Source: a virus
Direction: 5' to 3' (one strand)
Length of the DNA: 64,000 nucleotides
UHGV virus genome: UHGV-1351569
This document shows, one piece after another, positions 1 to 62,041 of the stretch. The notes below the pieces were generated by a model that was not told the origin of the DNA, did not search any database, and was given only the letters and a program-made list of their open reading frames with translations. Position 1 is the first letter of the stretch. The number at the start of each line of letters is the position of its first letter. Position numbers and translations under genes: made by a program.

Positions 1-2516
1 GATTTTCCTTTAATAATAGGATAATAACAGTCATTGCCGACGTAGCCAAAATCTACAAATATCGGCGCTTCTTGTCGCCATTGGTTTGCCCAATCGCCAG
101 CTTGGTGCGCAGTCCAGTATGCTCCATTTATATAAAGACGATCCCTATTAAAATTAAAAGTAGCAGACCCTTGAGGAGATAAAGCAATTTCTCCGACCTC
201 ATTAATATTAACACCGCTGTTAGTTTGGAAACTGTAAAATGATATAGTATTATCGGCGCCGCCGTTACCAACATACCAGTTATCAACTCCTGCCTTTTGT
301 CCTTTCATATAACCGGATTCGCTTGCAGCACTGTTAATAACAATAACATCCGAGTTGGCATTAAGAGTTAATCGACCGGTCATCGTGTCGCCTTCTTTCG
401 AAACACGAGTCGCAATAGCATCGCGAATATTTGTAGTATCACCGGCAGAAGTAAACGTTTTCCAGATATCAGACCAGATATTACCATTGCGAGCAATAGT
501 AGCTTCACCGCCGCCGACCTGAACGTTATCCGGGAAGTTAACAGTACCGTCTTGATTAAAACGAGACGTATGGCCTTGTGAACCATCTTCTTTCAGATGA
601 TGAATAACGAATGTACCCGAATTAATTTCAGTACCTAAAGACCAAACGGCTTTACCATTTAAAAACTTCTGTTTAACAATAGGATAATATTTGCTTATAG
701 CATCATCATCAATTTCCTGGAAAATAGGAGCCGCTTGAACATATTGAATGTCATAACCGCCGGCACCCGCTCCATGACCAACAAATTTAATATAACCGTT
801 AGCAGCAAACGTATTGTAACTTGATTGTAAATCTGGAATAGTAACTTTACCGGTATCTAAAGCCATACTAAACGGGCGAAGTGGACCGATATCACCATGT
901 TTACCTTCACCATAAGCAGTTGGAATAATATGAAGACTACCTTCTGAACGTCTAAAAATAGCTCCATAATCTGCGTTCCAAATACGAAGCGCATTCACAG
1001 CCCCAGATGAAATTTCGCCCGTTGTGTGAACTCCTCTATTTCCAGCAGTAACACCAGATGATTCAAATGAGCCATTGACGTTCATTTCTACTTCACCGGT
1101 AGTAAGTCTTTGAATATAGCTCATCCAGCTAGTTGCATCAGAAATTTCTATGACATTTTTACGGGTGCCTTCACTAGGATTAGTAAACGTATTACCCCAT
1201 ACAGAAATTGTCATATTATCAACTGAACTACTACCAGTGGTGTTACCTCTAAACATCAATGTAGAAGCATTATTTCTACCATCGATATTAACAGAACCAC
1301 CAATAACATCAATATTACCAGGAGTGACTAATAAACCGCCGTGAGTATTAATGTTTGTAGTACCCTTACCACGGAAATAATGATGATAATTACCGCCTTG
1401 ATAATATCCCAAAAGAGTCTGACCATCTCCAAACGCGTTATTATCATGATATGTAACGACAGTAGCGAGAGCATAGTTTTCAGTAGGAGGAGTAGTTAAA
1501 TCGGTTCCGTTAGTAGAATATCCAGCTACAAATTTTCTTAGGCTAGTTGTTTCGCTGGGACTAAATAAAAACGTTTTTGTTCCATTATTAACGCTGAAAT
1601 AATATCCGTCCTGATGCCATTTAAATCCGGTATCATTATCCCCAAGAACAATTGAGGCCGTTCCTAATTCAGAATATCCTTTTGGACCGCCTGGAGTACC
1701 TATAGAAATAGAATGACCCGCTTTCAACCCACCGGACCACGTAAACGACCAAAGATAAGCCTCCAACCCGTCACCGGCATACCAGGTTATCCCATCATTA
1801 TCTTTAACTTCATGGAAAATACCAGAACCAACGGCATTACGCATGACACGAAGATGATTAATAGCAGTAGTGCTTTCAGATAATGGGGTGTTATTTGCTA
1901 ATGAATAGATATCATAATCGCCTGCCTTCTTCCCGTCTGTAATGACTTTGTCGGTCAGAATTTGTGGAGACGAAATAGATTTCCATGCTGATACTTCAGG
2001 TGAAGTAAATAGGCCACTGCCTGAAAATGCATAAGTGCTTTCGCTACCAGCGGCATAGTCTTGAACCCTGATATTAAGTACTTGTGTAGTTAAACCGTCA
2101 TTAGCCGGGGCATAAATGATTCCACGTTCGCGACTATTGCCATCGAAAAAACGAACATGCGCTGTACCTGAACTTTTTGTAATAAGTTCTCCGCCTTCAG
2201 TCATAATCTGCCCGGCGGCAATAATATCACGAGTTACTCGAGCAATACCAGTTAAATTAAAATTACCTGTCTGAGTGAAGGTGCCATTTAAAGTATAATC
2301 ACCAGTTTGATTATAGTTTCCTATATGAATAACATTCCCGTCAATGCTACCGCCTTTAGCAAAACCCAGATCAATAATATTTCCTTGGTCATCTTTAGTA
2401 AAAAGTACACGGTCTTTTAAGTTTATAGCCAATTCACCTTCGGCTAATACTGAAGCGGCAGGACGCGCTCCTGCGGTTTTGCTTCTTTTAAATTGTATTT
2501 GTTTTAAAGTAGCCAT
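1..2516 (-). CDS. 37: long tail fibre distal subunit gp37, N-terminal ~838 codons; 3' end lies beyond window start
   Basis: Minus-strand ATG at 2516-2514; revcomp of 2461-2516 translates MATLKQIQFKRSKTAGARP, matching T-even gp37 N-terminus. No stop-bounded ORF in the track for this frame, so frame is open to the edge. Follows gene 36. Confidence 0.9.
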   Translation of the reverse strand, partial: MATLKQIQFKRSKTAGARPAASVLAEGELAINLKDRVLFTKDDQGNIIDLGFAKGGSIDGNVIHIGNYNQTGDYTLNGTFTQTGNFNLTGIARVTRDIIAAGQIMTEGGELITKSSGTAHVRFFDGNSRERGIIYAPANDGLTTQVLNIRVQDYAAGSESTYAFSGSGLFTSPEVSAWKSISSPQILTDKVITDGKKAGDYDIYSLANNTPLSESTTAINHLRVMRNAVGSGIFHEVKDNDGITWYAGDGLEAYLWSFTWSGGLKAGHSISIGTPGGPKGYSELGTASIVLGDNDTGFKWHQDGYYFSVNNGTKTFLFSPSETTSLRKFVAGYSTNGTDLTTPPTENYALATVVTYHDNNAFGDGQTLLGYYQGGNYHHYFRGKGTTNINTHGGLLVTPGNIDVIGGSVNIDGRNNASTLMFRGNTTGSSSVDNMTISVWGNTFTNPSEGTRKNVIEISDATSWMSYIQRLTTGEVEMNVNGSFESSGVTAGNRGVHTTGEISSGAVNALRIWNADYGAIFRRSEGSLHIIPTAYGEGKHGDIGPLRPFSMALDTGKVTIPDLQSSYNTFAANGYIKFVGHGAGAGGYDIQYVQAAPIFQEIDDDAISKYYPIVKQKFLNGKAVWSLGTEINSGTFVIHHLKEDGSQGHTSRFNQDGTVNFPDNVQVGGGEATIARNGNIWSDIWKTFTSAGDTTNIRDAIATRVSKEGDTMTGRLTLNANSDVIVINSAASESGYMKGQKAGVDNWYVGNGGADNTISFYSFQTNSGVNINEVGEIALSPQGSATFNFNRDRLYINGAYWTAHQAGDWANQWRQEAPIFVDFGYVGNDCYYPIIKGK

Positions 2517-2524
2517 AAGTCCTC

Positions 2525-3181
2525 TTAATAATAGCCGAAATCTTGAACAGAATCCTTAATAACAATTTGATCAAATCGTGGAACATGTGAGGGTTGAGAT
2601 GCAGGATTCTGTGAAAAAAGGTTTGGCGCAGTTAAATTTCCTGTCATAGTGTCTCCAGAGCGTAATACCCTAGAGTTTGCGTTTGCTGTAACAATATTTA
2701 TTGCTCCATCAACATAATCTTTCCGCGTAAGGTCATAATTATTTACTGGTGATAACGAAGTTACACGGATTTGTGATGCTTCAATTACGCCCTTTGAGCT
2801 AATATCTCCATTTCGTGTGTTAATTACTACAGTTCTACCTGCTGTTCCTTGTGATGATTTAAAACCAATACCATACCACGAAACAATATCCATATTTGTA
2901 GTATCATACGTGGCACTATCACCAGGACCAGCAAAAATACCATTATCGCCTGACCCTGCGCCAGGAACAGTCATTCCTTTATTAAAAATTACTTTATTTA
3001 AATAAGTACCACCATTAGCTTTAGAAACAAAATCGTTATCAGCAGCCTGCGGTTTGTTATATTCTGAATATATTTTAAATGATTTATAGAGTACATCGTC
3101 ACCGGCTGGATTCAATGGAAAATTTCCTTGATGCCAAATGACAGAGCCTCCGGTTGTTGAACCTACTTTTAAATCAGCCAT
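2525..3181 (-). CDS. 36: long tail fibre distal connector gp36
   Basis: Track ORF 218 aa, MADLKVGSTTGG...; size and position between 35 and 37 as in T4. Confidence 0.9.
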   Translation of the reverse strand: MADLKVGSTTGGSVIWHQGNFPLNPAGDDVLYKSFKIYSEYNKPQAADNDFVSKANGGTYLNKVIFNKGMTVPGAGSGDNGIFAGPGDSATYDTTNMDIVSWYGIGFKSSQGTAGRTVVINTRNGDISSKGVIEASQIRVTSLSPVNNYDLTRKDYVDGAINIVTANANSRVLRSGDTMTGNLTAPNLFSQNPASQPSHVPRFDQIVIKDSVQDFGYY

Positions 3182-3204
3182 TGTATGCCCCTTTATTTTA
3201 ATAG

Positions 3205-3212
3205 TATTTATA
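3205..3212 (-). promoter_or_regulatory. late promoter TATAAATA for gene 36
   Basis: Plus-strand TATTTATA 24 nt upstream of the gene 36 ATG. Confidence 0.65.
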
Positions 3213-3238
3213 AAGAAAAAGGGAACCCGAAGGCTCCC
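3211..3238 (-). terminator. rho-independent terminator after gene 35
   Basis: Minus transcript GGGAGCC-uucg-GGUUCCC (one G-U pair) followed by UUUUUCUUU. Confidence 0.7.
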
Positions 3239-3243
3239 TCAAT

Positions 3244-4362
3244 TTAAACTTCTCTAAATTCTTGTCCAAACACTTTACCAGTTTTAGACGATGTTTGTGT
3301 AGGAAGTACCATTATATTTGGAGGTGAAGCAGATTCACAGACATAATTAACTCTAATACCATTGACGCCAAATTCTGCAGGTTTTGAAATTCCGCCATTT
3401 CTTGATACTTCAGAAAAACTTAAATTCCTCATACCACCTTGACCTGCTTGCGCAGTTCTTTGTGCATATATCGTAAATCCTACTGCATTTTCTGGAATAA
3501 CTACATAATCTTCCTTTAATTCCCATGACCCAGCTTGTCCAGTAAACTCAGCATGTGTTGAAGAAATATATCCATTTGATGCATCATAAAAACGAATGGA
3601 TATATTTGTAGTTCCAAGATCAAGTAAATCAGCATCAGCATATAACTGTGCTTTAAGATAAAGAACATCGCCAGGAATTAAATTGTAGTCAGAAAGTTTA
3701 CTTATCGCGGATGAAGTTGGTAATCGCGCAATTTCGTTATTAGTTCCACCAACTGCTGACATAAATTGCTCGACACTTTCATATGTTCTTTTAGGAAATC
3801 CTGTAGCTCCGACGTCTTCTAAACTATCAAATACAACATCTAAAATAGTTTGATAGTCATCTGTGCTTTTTCTATTACTTAGTTTAACATGTTCTAATGC
3901 AATAGCTCTTTTAGAAGAAGTGTAAAAAGCGGCATATGATACGTCAAATCTTGACAATATAGAATCAGATGGAAAAGCAGACGTTCCGGCGGTTCTTAAC
4001 CAAGATACTACTTCAGGAGGAAAATTAACCTTTCCGTTAGTTAATATAGCAACAATTCGATTATTCGTCAAAGAATTCATGAAACTAACAAAAGCAGCAG
4101 ATGTTGTATCATTTGAAGTCGAAAAAGCATATGACTTACTATCAACTAATGCTCCTGTAGAAGGGTCAAAAACTCTTAAATGAAGTCCTGCGCTAAATGT
4201 TTGACTTCCAACAGGATTATCCTGAAATTTAACGTATGGTCCTTCTGCAGTAGAAAGCGGGCAAGAACCCGCTATACTTATTTTATATCTTACTGAATTG
4301 CTTTCCGATAAAAATGGCGTTTGGACATATCCTTGTCCAAACTCTGCCATAAATTTTTCCAT
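3244..4362 (-). CDS. 35: long tail fibre hinge protein gp35
   Basis: Track ORF 372 aa (T4 gp35 is 372 aa); position between 34 and 36. Confidence 0.9.
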   Translation of the reverse strand: MEKFMAEFGQGYVQTPFLSESNSVRYKISIAGSCPLSTAEGPYVKFQDNPVGSQTFSAGLHLRVFDPSTGALVDSKSYAFSTSNDTTSAAFVSFMNSLTNNRIVAILTNGKVNFPPEVVSWLRTAGTSAFPSDSILSRFDVSYAAFYTSSKRAIALEHVKLSNRKSTDDYQTILDVVFDSLEDVGATGFPKRTYESVEQFMSAVGGTNNEIARLPTSSAISKLSDYNLIPGDVLYLKAQLYADADLLDLGTTNISIRFYDASNGYISSTHAEFTGQAGSWELKEDYVVIPENAVGFTIYAQRTAQAGQGGMRNLSFSEVSRNGGISKPAEFGVNGIRVNYVCESASPPNIMVLPTQTSSKTGKVFGQEFREV

Positions 4363-4370
4363 AATACCTC

Positions 4371-7300
4371 TTATTCAACCCATTCAAATTTAACCGTTTT
4401 ATTCACTGGGTCAGGAATAATGCGAACATTACCAATTCGTAAGAAATCACGAATAGTAAGATTCCCCATTATAGCATTATCAGATGGTAAAGCACCGATA
4501 TCAGATGGCTGAGGAGGGTTACCTCCATCAAATACCTGAACAAAGCTTGACCAAGAATTTTTGGTTTTCTGCCATGTACGCGTCCAGCGAGTGGTGCGCG
4601 CTTCTGGGGTCGTTGGATAAGTAATCCAATCTTGGTAAAGCGAATCAAGTGTGTTACCAAACTGAGTCAATGTACCAGGAGATTTAACTTCTTCACCACG
4701 TTCTAAGTATGGAAGTCCAGTCACTTCATTAGTTTTTTCAACCATCTTAAAATAACCTGGGAACTGGTTATAAGTGGCTGAATCATTAATATCGATTGAC
4801 CAGAATCCTACAGTATCAGATGTTGGCACACGAGTATATAAATCAGAGGTTTTAGTACCCTGAGAACGAATTCTCGAGTTAACAGTTAAACCGCCTGAAT
4901 TTATAGTAGCACCTTTGGCAATAATTAAGCTTTCGCCAATCGTTACTTGGCCAGATGCATTATTAATAGCTAAAGGACGTAATCCATTAAATCCACCAGT
5001 CTGATCACCCGATGCAGTAAGCATAAAATTCGTTACTGATCCATCATTGCGAACAATGAAACCATAATTTCCGTTAATAGCACGGAAAGCATTTGCGCTT
5101 CGAGAAATAATTTCACCAGTTGCAGTGACTGAATTACCAAATGTTGCTACGCCATTTGCATTCAATGTTCCTGAAGCATTAACATTTATCGGTGTTACTG
5201 TACCGTTGATATTAAATGTTATATTTCCGGCTTTATTGCGCTGAGAATAAAAATGACTAGATGTTTCATCACTAACTTCAAATACGGTAGAACGTGTTGT
5301 ATCTAATTCCCCACTAAATTGATTTCCCCACACTCTAACAGTCATCGTTTGGGCTGGGTTTGTTCCAGTTTGAGGTCCTTTCTCAAAAATCAATCGAGTT
5401 GCTGTTCCAGTATTAGAAATAGTTAATGTACTATTTGCTGAAACTGATCCACCGAACGTAGCAGTACTAGATGATACAAGAGGGGCACTCAGATTCGTTT
5501 GTTGGGTTAAGGTTAGTGAACCATTAACTGTCTGCGCAATATCCCTACGAATGAACTGAGATGAATCTAGACCATCCAATAAATTTGTATCAGCAGCTTT
5601 TGCTTTTAACGGCAGATAATTTGCTAATACACGGTTTAATTCATATGGTGATACTGCATAGCTATTTTTCTCATATGATTCTAATGGCTGTGTTGAACCT
5701 ACCGTATCATTACCAACGAATGTAATTGAACCAGATGAAGTTTTAACAAAACCTCTTATCAGAGTAGTTGCTGCCCAAGTAGGTTCACTCTGCACAATCC
5801 ATTTTAAATTTTTTGGAGATACAGCAGTATTTGCTGACGTTCCAGCTACAGTTTCAACTTGAGTTGCAACTTTAATAACGCCTTCTTGTGCTTCAGTAGA
5901 TTTAGTACCTAAAAGCTTTTTAGGAGTTATTAGAACATTATCTAATGCTCCTGCAGCAGCTTCAACTTGTGTAGCTACACGAAGTGTACCACGCTGTGTC
6001 TCATTTGCTTCAAGAATATTAAGGGTATAATGGTCCCAGAGAGTTCCTGATTCAACTAATCCAGATAGAGCAACAACAGAAGTACGATCAGTACTATCAA
6101 ATCTAGTTTTAATTTTTAATGGTGTAGAGATACGAGTATCGTCGACGCCTGCGTCGAATTCAACTTGTGTAGCAATTTCAGCTATACCACTTAAACTTTC
6201 AGTTGCTATACGGTCATTTAAAGTTTTCGGAGTGACTGCACGAGTATAATCAGTTCCTGTATTAACTTCACTTTGCGTAGCAATTTCAATTAAACCAATT
6301 CTTGCATCAGTTGATGTCTTTTTATGTAACGTTTCTGGCGTTACAACCGCATTTGCCCATCCTTCTTGGCTTTGTCCAGCAATTACTTCACTTTCAACTG
6401 CTAAAATTACTGCACCTTGCTGTGTTGGAGTAGCTTTATACTGATCCAAAGCTTTAGGCGAAACAACTAAATTATTAGTGTTTTTATTATAAACATTTGT
6501 ACCATTTAATTCACGACTAGAAGCTGGAGTAGCTCCTGCGGTAGATACAAAGGTTACAATACCAGATAATGTTTCAGAACCTTGACGAGCTTGAAGCTTT
6601 TTAGGAGTGATGATTGCAGTATCATCAGTACCTGCGTTAGTTTCTTGCTGCGTAGCAATTTCAGCAACACCTCTGCGAGTTTCTGTGGCTGTTCTTTCAT
6701 TCAGCTTTTTAGGAGTGATGATAATATCGTCAGCAAAAGAGAATGTAGTATCCTGATTCACTTGAGCAGTGGTTGCTATTCTTGCGATACCTCTACGAGT
6801 TTCTGTAGCAGTACGGTTAGCTAATGTTTCTGGAGTAATTGCTAATTCTTTTTGTGGAGAATTTTCTAAATCGACGTTAGCTTGAGCTTGTGTAGCTAAA
6901 GCAATTACGCCTAATCTTGCTCTAGTAGAATCATTTAAAGAATCAACTCTTTCTACAGTTGGAACATTTTGTTGCACAACCCAGTATTTTCCATCAGAAT
7001 CTTCTATATAAGCAAGTTGTAAAACTGGAACATAATTAGTTTCACCATTAAAAACTAATTCTTGAACTGTTACCCATTCAGCCTCAGGTGGATATTCTGA
7101 ACGTTTTGGGAATTGCAACAATTGAACTGAAGAAGCAATTTTATCTTCACCGGCAGCTTTGATTTTAACTGTTTGGCCTTTTCTCATGTAATTCATGGAA
7201 ATTTTAACAGTATCACCAACAGAAATATTAGTTGGAAGCTGAAGTTCAATTGTTTGAGTTGTTCCGTTATTCGCACCAAATACCATAACTTCTTCATTTG

Positions 7301-58817: not shown

Positions 58818-59309
58818 TTATTCCCAATAATCGAGAGCGAGAGTTACTTCAAAGGTTTGGATTTCATTGTTTGAATCCCAATCTAATTGAAGTTCACCCA
58901 CGTTAGTAGGCCACAGGCCTTTAATTTCGACTTCTTTTGTTACAGTTTTAGCGTCACGAGCATATTGGCGTACAATAGCGCTCTTTTTATACTCTGCTGG
59001 TTTTCCACCAGTAATTTCGTTTCCTTGCCCAGCAGCAATGCTTTGCCAGTCAACAAACTTCTGGCGTGCATCATGCGCCTCATCATTCATTACTGTAATA
59101 GTCCAGTCATCGAATGTACGATCGCCTGCTACGTTAATTTTACGGTTCATAAATCCGACTGGAATTTTTTCTACAATACCAGCTGGTAAAGCAGTGGCTT
59201 TACATTGAAACGTAAAATTTTGTCCAAGATAAGAAATTTCTACTTGGAATAAGTTAGGTCGAGCAAAATCACCAGATTCAAACGCTCGTGTTACATCATC
59301 TACAAACAT
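58818..59309 (-). CDS. 19: tail tube protein gp19
   Basis: 163 aa MFVDDVTRAFESGDFARPNLFQVEISYLGQNF... Confidence 0.95.
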   Translation of the reverse strand: MFVDDVTRAFESGDFARPNLFQVEISYLGQNFTFQCKATALPAGIVEKIPVGFMNRKINVAGDRTFDDWTITVMNDEAHDARQKFVDWQSIAAGQGNEITGGKPAEYKKSAIVRQYARDAKTVTKEVEIKGLWPTNVGELQLDWDSNNEIQTFEVTLALDYWE

Positions 59310-59323
59310 ATTAGCCTCTGTAG

Positions 59324-59331
59324 TATTTATA
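59324..59331 (-). promoter_or_regulatory. late promoter TATAAATA, proximal to gene 19
   Basis: Plus-strand TATTTATA 14 nt upstream of the gene 19 ATG; SD GAGG between. Confidence 0.55.
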
Positions 59332-59382
59332 TCCCTATGTTTAACCTAGGGCATATAGAATTAAAGAATTAAGGATATAGTG

Positions 59383-59390
59383 TATTTATA
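59383..59390 (-). promoter_or_regulatory. second late promoter TATAAATA, distal, after HNH gene
   Basis: Plus-strand TATTTATA; adjacent hairpin GGCCTG-ccgaaa-CAGGCC (59391-59408). Confidence 0.5.
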
Positions 59391-59416
59391 TGGCCTGCCG
59401 AAACAGGCCTTTAGAA

Positions 59417-60022
59417 TCATTCTAGTAAATCCCAAAGATCTACGCTATTTCTTTTTGACTTTTCTCGATTAGATTCCCAAGTGATTATTTCTAAATTTTT
59501 TACGCTTGCTATAATTTCCGGCGGAATTAAATTATCAAATCCATATTTGATAGATACTTTATGATCGAGTTGGTAAGCACCTTCTACGCCACACACTCCT
59601 ATTTTATCAGCATTCGGCCATTTTGACCAGATTTTTCTTATTTTAGCTGACTTAGTTATAGAATGAACTCTACTAGCATATAATGCAAACTCTTTTCTTT
59701 TACCAGTCCATCGAGGATGTTTATCACCTCTTTGCCATGGTCTACTTATTCCAGATTGAACTTCCGAATTTTTAATAGCAACTTGTTTAATGCTACATTT
59801 TCTACATGCATGCGTGGGTGTTCTATTTAAAAGCTGAATACTTCTACTAAATTTAATACCACACAAATCACATTTAGCGTCAACTATTTTATTACTATTC
59901 TTTGGCATTAATTCTATTGGAACAGATACTGTATCATGATATGATACTTTATATCCCAGAATTGTCGACCACATTTTTGAATGATTTCTTGGTTTTATTG
60001 TAACAAACTTAGAAATAATCAC
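59417..60022 (-). CDS. HNH endonuclease with N-terminal Cys-pair zinc ribbon, inserted between genes 18 and 19
   Basis: Track ORF 59417..60061; C-terminal VCGVEGAYQLDHKVSIKYGFDN...NLEIITWESNREKSK (HNH) and CDLCG...HACRKCS. Start set at GTG 60022 (SD GAGGAAA 6 nt upstream); ATG 59974 is an alternative. Confidence 0.6.
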   Translation of the reverse strand: MIISKFVTIKPRNHSKMWSTILGYKVSYHDTVSVPIELMPKNSNKIVDAKCDLCGIKFSRSIQLLNRTPTHACRKCSIKQVAIKNSEVQSGISRPWQRGDKHPRWTGKRKEFALYASRVHSITKSAKIRKIWSKWPNADKIGVCGVEGAYQLDHKVSIKYGFDNLIPPEIIASVKNLEIITWESNREKSKRNSVDLWDLLE

Positions 60023-60061
60023 TTGTTTCCTCGAGAATAGGGGCCGAAGCCCCATAATCAA

Positions 60062-62041
60062 TTAACCTGCAAGACCAGTTAACTCATCAAAATCTGCACC
60101 AGTAGCAGTTGCGACGAAATTAAGTTGGATATAATTTATACTACGAGCCGGTTGGATGTAGAATGTTGCAACAAACTCATTTCTATCAATTACTGACGGA
60201 GTGTTATTTGTTGTATCGCAAACTACACGATATTCATAAATTCCACCGAGAGCTTTAATTCCCTGTAAGTATTGGGCAGTTTCTGTGCGGAATGATGAAC
60301 GAGTAAACGCGTTGTTTAATTCGAACAAACGATATTTTGAACTACGTCCGATATTCGTTTTCAACATATTAAACAGACGACGAACGTTAATACGATCAAA
60401 TGGAGAAGGAACAGAAGTAGCTGTTTTATCACCATATAATACGTAACCATCACCACCTGTACCAGTTACTGGGTTGATAGCTTCTTGGTATAAACGGTCG
60501 CGCTGAGCTTGGCGAGTTTCAATAGCAAGTTTAATAACGTTAAGAATCTGACCACGATTATAACCAGCTGGAGACATCCAAGTCTGAGAAACGTTATCGG
60601 TTCTTGCACATAAACCGGCAATATCAGCTGCTAATGGAACCCAGCGATTTACATCATTATATTTGTCATACTGATATTTGTAGTTACCATCAATTGCTGC
60701 ATAGGTTGAACTGATATTAAAGTTATTATCAGTGTATGAACCTGTTGCGGTTCTCCAATTGACTAAGTTGTCAACAGCGCGAGTTACAGGAATTCCAACT
60801 ACAGTTTCGCGCGGTGGTGAGCACAATACTAAGCAATCTTGGCGAGCATCCCCAATTGAAACGACGTGTTTTTGGACAGTAGATGCTGTTTCTAAAGATT
60901 CACCGGCACAAGAACCCGCAATAAACAACTGAACGTCAACAGATTCACGGTCAGCAAAGAAGTCCCAAGCTTCCATCAAATCTCCTGCTGTTACTTCAGC
61001 ATTTGATGATAATCCACCAGACAGAGTTAAAATTCCAGAGAAGCCTTCTGGCCAGTTTTGTGCAGTTGCAAAAATATATTCTGAACCACCTTTTGCGAAA
61101 AAGTCATCAATATAGATGTTACTATCGTAAATATCTTTTTCACCGCGCTTTGTTGAAAGAACAACGCTTTGAACAATAGCATCATTACGACGAACTATAA
61201 TAGCGTATTGTGAATCAGTTTGTGGTCCATATCCAAACACTGCCTTGGCAGTAGATGCGCGTGTTCCGCCACCCGGATAAATTGGGAGTAATGCAGAAGC
61301 CCCTTTTGCGTAGTCAGCTTTAGATACGATTTCGATTTCGATTTTATCGCCCAACTCGCCTGGATAAAGAGCTACTACTCCTGGAATTCCATATTTTTCG
61401 AGATTTGCCTGAAAGTCAACCGCTGTCATAGCAGCTTCGGCATTTTCAATTTCAGCTAATAAAATACCAGAATCAGTAATAATTTTTCCAAGAGTTATTA
61501 CTGCAGCTAAACCAGAGGAAGACGAAGAAATTTCCGCGGTCCAGTTAGAACCTAATGCTGGATATTCACCGACTTCTTTCGCTTTAGCGATAATTTTTGC
61601 GGTAGGAATATTAATTTTCTTAATTTTTCCATCAGCATCTACTTCGGTAATTTTACCCTCTGTTTCAACATTTTCTGAAACATACTTAACCGTGATTTTA
61701 TCTCCAACCGCGTAGTTACTACCTGGGGCTGAAATAGTGTATTCAATATTACCAGCAATCGGAGATGAGTTTTTAGCGGTATCTCTATCGACAGCACGCA
61801 CAACTCGCAAATCATTTCCATATTGTAAGAAATTCATTGCAGACATAAAATAATCAGCAGTTTCAGCTGTAGGTTGACCAAAAGTATTAACTAAATCTAC
61901 TTCATTTGTAACCTGTTTAATCTGAAAAGCAGGACCCCACTGGAATTTACCGGCCAAAGCTGCTGTACCAGTAGAGTTATTAACAACGGTGCTTTGAACC
62001 GTAGTTTCTTTGAGCTCAATGCCCGGAGATAATAAAGTCAT
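60062..62041 (-). CDS. 18: tail sheath protein gp18
   Basis: 659 aa (T4 gp18 length) MTLLSPGIELKETTVQSTVVNNSTGTAALAGKFQWGP... Confidence 0.97.
   Translation of the reverse strand: MTLLSPGIELKETTVQSTVVNNSTGTAALAGKFQWGPAFQIKQVTNEVDLVNTFGQPTAETADYFMSAMNFLQYGNDLRVVRAVDRDTAKNSSPIAGNIEYTISAPGSNYAVGDKITVKYVSENVETEGKITEVDADGKIKKINIPTAKIIAKAKEVGEYPALGSNWTAEISSSSSGLAAVITLGKIITDSGILLAEIENAEAAMTAVDFQANLEKYGIPGVVALYPGELGDKIEIEIVSKADYAKGASALLPIYPGGGTRASTAKAVFGYGPQTDSQYAIIVRRNDAIVQSVVLSTKRGEKDIYDSNIYIDDFFAKGGSEYIFATAQNWPEGFSGILTLSGGLSSNAEVTAGDLMEAWDFFADRESVDVQLFIAGSCAGESLETASTVQKHVVSIGDARQDCLVLCSPPRETVVGIPVTRAVDNLVNWRTATGSYTDNNFNISSTYAAIDGNYKYQYDKYNDVNRWVPLAADIAGLCARTDNVSQTWMSPAGYNRGQILNVIKLAIETRQAQRDRLYQEAINPVTGTGGDGYVLYGDKTATSVPSPFDRINVRRLFNMLKTNIGRSSKYRLFELNNAFTRSSFRTETAQYLQGIKALGGIYEYRVVCDTTNNTPSVIDRNEFVATFYIQPARSINYIQLNFVATATGADFDELTGLAG

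Follow-up and report, generated by a model that had tools for sequence, protein, structure and literature searches.

The 64,000-nucleotide (nt) stretch of the virus genome UHGV-1351569 analyzed here (the window) carries, on its minus strand, a late tail operon in which a small open reading frame (ORF) separates gene 18, encoding the tail sheath (60062-62041), from gene 19, encoding the tail tube (58818-59309). This ORF, a candidate free-standing homing endonuclease gene, is the subject of the present study. The upstream neighbor matches five gp18/sheath Pfam domains (best E=1e-39) and is called tail sheath in the annotations of T6, T4, and others, and the downstream neighbor matches Pfam Phage_T4_gp19 (E=3e-15). 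A sequence-only reading of the window had placed an ORF of ~200 codons in the 18-19 gap, and an ORF of 201 codons was indeed found there (59417-60022, minus strand), with a GTG start and a TGA stop. The predicted protein is 99% identical to ORF19.1 of T6 (CAA84443), which was deposited in the 1990s and is still labeled "hypothetical", and it matches PHROG 5104 (function unknown, E=5e-82); the name ORF19.1 is used below. The mechanical ORF starts at TTG 60061. We adopted GTG 60022 as the real start because a Shine-Dalgarno sequence, GAGGAAA (60026-60032, minus strand), lies 6 nt upstream, because GenBank notes a likely GTG start for the T6 gene, and because the homologs open with M-I-I-S-K exactly at this residue. 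The peptides quoted in the sequence-only reading (YQLDHKVSIKYGFDN...NLEIITWESNREK, CDLCG, and HACRKCS) were all recovered in the translation, and both hairpins and the two TATAAATA motifs that it had reported were located on the minus strand, at the places where it had put them. On the opposite strand no ORF of at least 40 amino acids was found at the locus. A sigma-70 promoter scan of the region gave background level, and an Rfam scan gave no credible family, one sub-threshold snoRNA match being dismissed.

The 18-19 spacer of T4, which had been described beforehand as short, measures 116 nt, and comparison of the junction in 18 Tequatrovirus genomes (10 carriers and 8 empty sites) established that the ORF is an insertion relative to T4. 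In the window, a cassette of 644 nt (59418-60061, minus strand), composed of a hairpin, the Shine-Dalgarno sequence, and the ORF, stands in place of the 8 nt TACGGTGC of T4, both flanks being otherwise identical. The length is 643-656 nt in the carriers as against 8 nt at the empty sites, between the same flanks, and the final A of the TGA stop codon (59417) is the first base of the common right flank. The cassette brings its own hairpin and Shine-Dalgarno sequence, and its insertion point lies upstream of the elements that T4 also has before gene 19. These are, all on the minus strand, a hairpin, GGCCUG-UUUCGG-CAGGCC (59392-59409), which in T4 directly follows gene 18, and two TATAAATA late-promoter motifs of gene 19, the distal one (59383-59390) identical in T4 and the proximal one (59324-59331) at the position equivalent to a late promoter annotated in fPS-90. 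About 117-128 genomes among ~520 close relatives are carriers. Since only about one-fifth of the close relatives carry it, ORF19.1 is not a universal T-even gene, an outcome that the sequence-only reading had made a test of its proposal. The presence is patchy even among genomes whose flanks are 96-99% identical, and the boundaries are identical.

Two alleles, a T6 type and an RB3 type, occupy this one site. The RB3-type genes (RB3, L004 1018-1635; HY03, L090; Sf22, L091) were compared with the window gene at 59417-60022, and the two types were found to share ~30% identity over the N-terminal 130 residues and ~88% over the C-terminal 70. They have the 5' leader in common, the leader and first codons being nearly identical. 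This chimerism suggests recombination or domain swapping between the alleles, and each allele is accompanied by its own haplotype of the gene 18 patch described below. In ECML-134 (L085) and PP01 (L088) the leader is 1 nt shorter (TTGATAAGGGGC for TTGATTATGGGGC), and GAGGAATCAAGTG is found for GAGGAAACAAGTG; in the PP01 annotation the ORF begins at a downstream ATG and has 185 amino acids.

The end of gene 18 that precedes the cassette contains a recoded patch of 39 nt (60110-60148, minus strand), situated 50-88 nt from the stop codon of the gene, with 11-14 changes that are nearly all synonymous. Over the final 700 nt of gene 18, 36 differences from T4 were counted in the window, and 14 of them fall inside this patch (Fisher p=4e-10). 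The patch, which in the window holds the codons for A-R-S-I-N-Y-I-Q-L-N-F-V-A, encodes ARSINYI(Q/T)LNFVA, in which conservation of the gp18 C-terminus across the T4 superfamily is highest; the peptide PARSINY/FI.LNF is conserved throughout that superfamily. A variant patch was found in all 10 aligned carriers (7 T6-type, 3 RB3-type), and the 8 aligned empty-site genomes comprise 5 with the T4-type sequence and 3 with a variant (C40, RB68, and T2/SV76). The T4-type sequence never stands beside the ORF in this sample, and its restriction to empty sites gives a Fisher p of 0.0065 for the 18 genomes, uncorrected for phylogeny. Database-wide, rough identity bands correspond to ~250 empty T4-type sites, ~150 empty variant sites, and ~128 carriers. 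Such a pattern would be the one predicted by a homing cycle, with sensitive empty, resistant empty, and resistant carrier sites, and the patch is a candidate recognition, cleavage, or immunity site. The variant haplotypes also create GTATAAATTATAT (TATAAAT, 60134-60140, minus strand), an element one base off the late-promoter motif TATAAATA, which lies ~110 nt upstream of the ORF start and is missing from the T4-type sequence.

The leader between the gene 18 stop codon and the start of ORF19.1 is 39 nt long. It contains the hairpin GGGGC-UUCG-GCCCC (60040-60053, minus strand), present in the predicted fold and ending 7 nt upstream of the Shine-Dalgarno sequence. To follow this element in other genomes, the 80 nt upstream of the start codon were checked in L005, L101, L103-L106, L108, and L189-L200, in addition to the window. 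In nearly all of the homologs examined, a stable stem-loop separates the gp18 stop from the ORF Shine-Dalgarno; the sequences are unrelated, many of them with UUCG or GAAA loops, so that position and structure are conserved and sequence is not. The hairpin probably preserves the 3' structure of the gene 18 message and limits read-through or re-initiation. No local hairpin sequestering the ribosome-binding site was seen in the predicted local fold, where the Shine-Dalgarno sequence is unpaired. Because the leader contains no TATAAATA or other promoter, the ORF appears to be read through from late gene 18 transcripts.

The start codon itself is predicted to be engaged in a long-range structure. 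A repeat scan identified an inverted repeat (I1) of 26 nt that is 92% complementary, with arms at 60000-60025 and 59478-59503 (minus strand). In the mRNA, the 5' arm reads CAA-GUG-AUU-AUU-UCU-AAG-UUU-GUU-AC and consists of three spacer nucleotides, the GUG, and codons 2-7. The 3' arm, ~500 nt downstream of the start, consists of codons V174-W182 (V-K-N-L-E-I-I-T-W) and holds those of the invariant residues N176 and L177. The duplex of the window has an energy of -30.7 kcal/mol, is the best partner of the start region anywhere in the mRNA, and is part of the minimum free energy (MFE) fold with a pair probability of 1.00. The start region was scanned in the same way against every 36-nt window of each homolog mRNA (23 homologs), and the 3' arm was the single best partner in 16 of them, with energies of -18.9 to -37.2 kcal/mol; the 16 include the T6 and RB3 types, VR7, KP185, STP4-a, phiS, QL01, and Thanatos-2. 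Shuffled 5' arms gave about -9 +/- 2.5 kcal/mol, and 0/200 reached the observed energy. When whole 700-nt mRNAs were folded, 14-18 of the 18 core pairs were found in the MFE structure of all 12 pairing-group genes, with a mean pair probability of 0.76-1.00, as against zero in three genes without the helix.

The choice of codons in the two arms points in the same direction. In the 14 helix-bearing genes, whose proteins share 42-73% identity, Leu177 is always TTA, Ile179 always ATA, and Ile2 always ATT, and the frequency of the commonest codon is 0.885 in the arms versus 0.66 at 47 other conserved codons (Mann-Whitney p=0.0004). Changes in the arms are paired: ATT to ATC occurs with GAA to GAG in KP185, STP4-a, and Thanatos-2, and A to U at -2 (two bases 5' of the start codon) occurs with ACT to ACA in phiS, L111, and P0034, while ATC to GTC leads to a G.U pair in VR7 and P0034. 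The conserved peptides do not force this complementarity, since the helix-less homologs spell identical or similar peptides with a different choice of codons (AGT for Ser, CTA for Leu, ATT-ATT for Ile), mostly behind an ATG start. Judged on these sequence comparisons, it is likely that the helix is real and under selection at the RNA level.

The sequence-only reading had also assigned an HNH signature to the C-terminus of the protein. The predicted structure and the invariant residues agree with this assignment; the search of curated profiles does not, as no HNH model was matched. In the AlphaFold (AF2) model (mean predicted local distance difference test, pLDDT, of 90.4), the HNH-like core at residues 150-188 (YQLDH...NLEIITWESNREK; 59459-59575, minus strand) shows the arrangement typical of HNH enzymes, two antiparallel strands (150-154 and 177-181) and then a helix (182-188). 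The D-H that ends strand 1 and would provide the His general base, as well as the Asn residues, are also in place (D153, H154, N176, and N185). These four residues and Y150 are invariant in three alignments (A1, 42 sequences; A2, 37 distant sequences; A3, 43 core domains), even in relatives at 23-38% identity. From the model and the conservation, H154 was assigned as the putative general base and D153 and N185 as putative metal ligands. In the N-terminal half, which is presumed to bind DNA, C51, C54, C73, and C76 of a four-Cys zinc finger (codons within 59795-59872, minus strand) are invariant or nearly so, and weak matches to the DUF4379 treble clef were obtained for 14 of the 42 homologs. 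Among the BFVD structure matches are proteins that bear the names endonuclease, HNH endonuclease, and homing endonuclease. In view of the structure model and of the residue conservation, ORF19.1 is very probably a divergent beta-beta-alpha-metal nuclease. The family to which this core belongs is large. At E<=1e-3 it comprises 6612 representative clusters, at E<=1e-10 it comprises 1755, and none of the sampled members reaches any Pfam HNH model.

Several possible relationships of the protein were tried and rejected. Membership in the Mob family (MobA-E) was discarded: there is no HNH_3 match, the core is C-terminal, and tblastn gave no paralogous Mob hits. Membership in the DHHRN or Endo VII-motif group (F-CphI) was discarded as well, the core reading LDHKVS without flanking Cys pairs and the Cys pairs of ORF19.1 lying ~80-100 residues upstream. 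DUF7487, found in some relatives, is not the nuclease core, being placed upstream of it. The matches of the core-domain profile to leucine-rich repeats in the PDB occur via a short P-x-x-I-G-x-x-x-N-L-x pattern and were treated as spurious.

The family shows the modular organization expected of homing genes. Distant relatives keep the C-terminal core behind an N-terminus that is NUMOD3, HTH_23, HTH_5, Sigma70_r4, CapR, DUF4379, or a zinc finger, a shuffling of DNA-binding modules around a nuclease that is a hallmark of such genes, as are the presence or absence among close relatives and the precise intergenic boundaries described above. Some viral contigs carry 2-4 gene copies with the nuclease core inside 8 kb. 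Multi-copy metagenomic contigs include L059 and L060 (about 320-5790; in both, the genes lie beside a gp18-like fragment) and L078 (2104-3141 and 5775-6824). In Acinetobacter phage 133 (NC_015250; L102 1570-3647), the homolog Acj133p227 is located between rnlA-A and rnlA-B, an RNA ligase 1 gene annotated as split, which looks like an endonuclease insertion breaking a gene.

Beside these signs of mobility, the family is faithful to the end of gene 18. The homolog follows gp18 in ~45 of 80 viral-contig loci, usually directly before gp19, and the locus is kept even where identity to the window proteins falls to 35-50% for gp18 and 30-38% for gp19. Of the 12 homologs that were looked up individually, all those with readable flanks lie at this place, between gp18 and gp19, and the same placement was seen in Shewanella phage Thanatos-2 and in several genera of Straboviridae. 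The gap to gp18 is often <40 nt, or the genes overlap. In Sinorhizobium phage phiM12 (L100 589-5250) the homolog also follows gp18, and the next gene encodes a NosD-like domain protein and not gp19; the constant partner is therefore the end of gene 18.

Taken together, the data lead us to read ORF19.1 as a free-standing, promoter-less, self-limiting homing-endonuclease cassette inserted directly after the gene 18 stop, and from the sequence evidence we give this reading a probability of about 0.68. The interpretation offered in the sequence-only reading is supported to that extent, its suggestion of a homing or marker-exclusion site being consistent with the comparative data. In the proposed mechanism, a co-infecting, cassette-free relative would have its genome nicked or cut by the enzyme close to the 18-19 junction, most likely within the 39 nt of gene 18 in which the universally conserved ARSINYI(T/Q)LNFV is encoded. 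During recombinational repair, with the carrier genome as template, the cassette would be copied together with nearby markers, and carrier genomes would be protected by the synonymous recoding of those 39 nt. The cassette would be transcribed by read-through from the abundant late gene 18 transcript, and its translation would be kept low by the stable hairpin 5' of the Shine-Dalgarno sequence, by the GUG start, and by the conserved long-range helix, in which ~18-26 bp would join the start-codon region to the N-L-E-I-I-T-W codons ~500 nt downstream. Access to the start codon would be limited to nascent RNA or to moments when a ribosome is unwinding the 3' arm, and translation might occur only until the 3' arm has been transcribed. 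More tentatively, the ORF19.1 family could be an unrecognised HNH branch that tracks the DNA for the gp18 peptide PARSINYIxLNF across the T4 superfamily, and of which one large sublineage gates its own translation by a helix spanning ~500 nt. The enzyme would in that case be made only in a short co-transcriptional window on the sheath mRNA, a mode of self-limitation not described before.

This reading has to be weighed against others, and a number of observations speak against it. As far as the protein is concerned, the Pfam scan gave no HNH model and no nuclease family, the 42 homologs gave a single HNH_4 match (E=0.078) and the 37 distant relatives none, and hhalign of the core with the HNH domain of SpCas9, a sequence verified against the PDB, placed YQLDH on YDVDH with a probability of only 6.7%. 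NCBIfam and PADLOC scans of the protein returned nothing, the full-length profile met only zinc-finger noise in the PDB, and Foldseek found no PDB match below E=0.3. Since no HNH profile matches and the weak matches are solely to zinc fingers, ORF19.1 might be thought a nucleic-acid-binding zinc-finger regulator with an inactive HNH-like remnant. We regard this as highly improbable: the putative catalytic D-H, N, and N are invariant even at 23-38% identity while the zinc-finger half is replaced by other modules, a pattern opposite to that of a decayed active site. Also to be counted is that the same-locus occurrence in very distant phages, often tightly packed with gp18 or overlapping it, fits a long-resident useful gene as well. 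ORF19.1 could accordingly be a domesticated nuclease serving the phage in competitor exclusion, in attack on host or foreign DNA, or in a late DNA transaction, and be inherited vertically with repeated loss, as in T4. Besides the fidelity to gp18 seen in the ~45 of 80 loci and the 12 look-ups and the short or absent gaps, such a role would fit the retention of most of the ORF in 233 of 239 phage records, the invariance of the putative catalytic residues, and the elaborate conserved translational control, which suggests long co-adaptation. It fits poorly with a gene whose presence is patchy, with identical boundaries, among genomes nearly identical in the flanks, which has two alleles with swapped N-terminal halves at one site, a paralog that splits rnlA, and the multi-copy loci and modular DNA-binding domains typical of homing endonucleases. 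We consider it unlikely as a replacement for homing, and a gene that homes could also benefit the phage.

The helix and the patch are each open to another explanation. The complementarity between the start and the distal codons could have no regulatory role and be a by-product of two conserved ancestral peptides, which both arms do encode, or a DNA-level inverted repeat. Seven of the 23 homologs do without the helix, and the antisense pairing is about as stable as the sense pairing, so that duplex energies do not separate the strands. The helix statistics rest on mutually related sequences, and the shuffle controls for this reason overstate significance. In formal pair counts over 22 sequences, helix-less ones included, 81.8% of cells were paired versus 33-47% in slid registers, a percentage inflated because the helix was first defined on an aligned sequence. 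Ten cells were changed on both sides and the covariation score was 0.124 versus 0.084, with 0/500 shuffles reaching either, but only 3 pairs had two-sided changes, a count reached by 206 of 500 shuffles. An absence of regulatory function is nevertheless improbable in our judgment: the homologs that lack the helix use different codons for identical or similar peptides, the synonymous sites of the arms are significantly more frozen than the 47 other conserved codons of the same genes, the variable arm codons change together with their partners, and the arms, set back by 36 and 60 nt from the cassette ends, are not placed as terminal inverted repeats would be. As for the patch, it is not diagnostic of the cassette, because 3 of the 8 empty-site genomes also have a variant and the association test ignores phylogeny. 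It could be a leftover tract of co-conversion or recombination from a divergent donor, or its TATAAAT could be a promoter-like element driving the ORF, in place of a recognition or immunity site. T-even genomes are mosaics, the patch occurs in at least four haplotypes, variant sequence being present in empty-site C40, RB68, and T2/SV76, and AGTATAAATTATAT, one base off TATAAATA, is common to the variant haplotypes. We find these explanations less probable than a target site, while giving them more weight than the alternatives just discussed. Patch and insert are separated by ~50 nt of near-identity, which a simple conversion tract would not readily explain; the patch overlies the gp18 peptide with the strongest conservation, a type of target that homing endonucleases typically choose; no T4-type patch stands beside the ORF in the sample; and carriers at a greater distance, among them L016 and L020, have no TATAAAT.

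As a GenBank entry the gene is old and uncharacterised, and one more free-standing endonuclease in a T-even phage is by itself unsurprising. By tblastn, it was found at 240 places in 239 records, that is, once per genome. Almost all genome records label it "hypothetical", and a few give the wrong labels "holin", "putative head morphogenesis protein", or "type II restriction endonuclease"; near the locus, GenBank further mislabels gp19 as "tail fiber protein" and gp18 as "long tail fiber proximal subunit". In the record of Acinetobacter phage 133, the homolog carries the remark "some similarity to ORF19.1 of phage T6". The 18-19 locus is absent from the 2010 review of T4 mobile elements, and Petrov et al. 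2010 counted one unnamed "other HNH" in T6. A literature search on ORF19.1, gp19.1, and the 18/19 locus found no study of the gene and no cleavage, homing, or expression data, which is a further point against our reading. What is new here is the long-range start-codon helix. The sequence-only reading had reported neither this helix nor the recoded gene 18 patch, nor the identity with T6 ORF19.1.

The reference system for the study of intron-less homing and of marker exclusion is provided by T-even phages. The reviews consulted do not discuss this cassette, though it is found in T6 and in >100 sequenced relatives. If the enzyme is active, a homing site would be added within the core tail operon, and local mosaicism at the end of gene 18 would be explained. 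Since the core family is large and is missed by HNH profiles, one biochemical characterisation would annotate thousands of "hypothetical" phage proteins. The interest of the locus is raised by the unrecognised HNH branch, by the fidelity to the end of gene 18, by the recoded patch over an invariant gp18 peptide, and above all by the conserved 500-nt start-codon helix, which, if true, would be a clean example of a selfish nuclease gene surviving downstream of a very highly expressed phage gene.

The closest known systems are the free-standing homing endonucleases of T-even phages, such as SegF, SegG, SegB, and MobE (PMC2988022). Like the seg and mob genes, ORF19.1 is a small promoter-less intergenic cassette between conserved genes that varies among close relatives, combines a predicted nuclease with a presumed DNA-binding module, and is apparently expressed under tight limits, its presumed target being in a neighboring conserved gene, tens to hundreds of nucleotides from the insertion. 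Unlike them, it has no detectable sequence relation to any of the group and is placed in the late tail operon. HNH nucleases without structural zinc in the core (Cas9 HNH, Gme HNH 4h9d, GVE2 HNH 5h0o, and T5 SciA) offer a second comparison, from which ORF19.1 differs in having no significant Pfam HNH match. F-CphI (PMC6083498) is likewise the product of a free-standing phage gene, with a C-terminal catalytic domain of beta-beta-alpha type that is missed by standard HNH models; for ORF19.1 this domain is predicted. The CX2-4C...DHDH...CX2C...N pattern of F-CphI and the DHHRN group is missing from ORF19.1, which reads DHKV.

Control of endonuclease translation by RNA structure has been described for I-TevI, I-TevII, I-TevIII, segB, and Aeh1 mobE, in which a local hairpin at the ribosome-binding site is relieved by an internal late promoter, and seg43(25) has a hairpin directly upstream of the ribosome-binding site (PMC2988022). 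ORF19.1 resembles seg43(25) in the very stable hairpin directly 5' of a free Shine-Dalgarno sequence, and it resembles the hairpin-regulated T-even endonuclease genes in that its start would be buried in RNA structure on a long transcript. It departs from the latter in that the pairing partner lies ~500 nt downstream within the ORF, that the start codon and not the Shine-Dalgarno sequence is paired, and that there is no internal promoter to bring relief. The nearest mechanistic analog would be found in the RNA phage MS2, with its long-distance pairing and its control by delayed folding.

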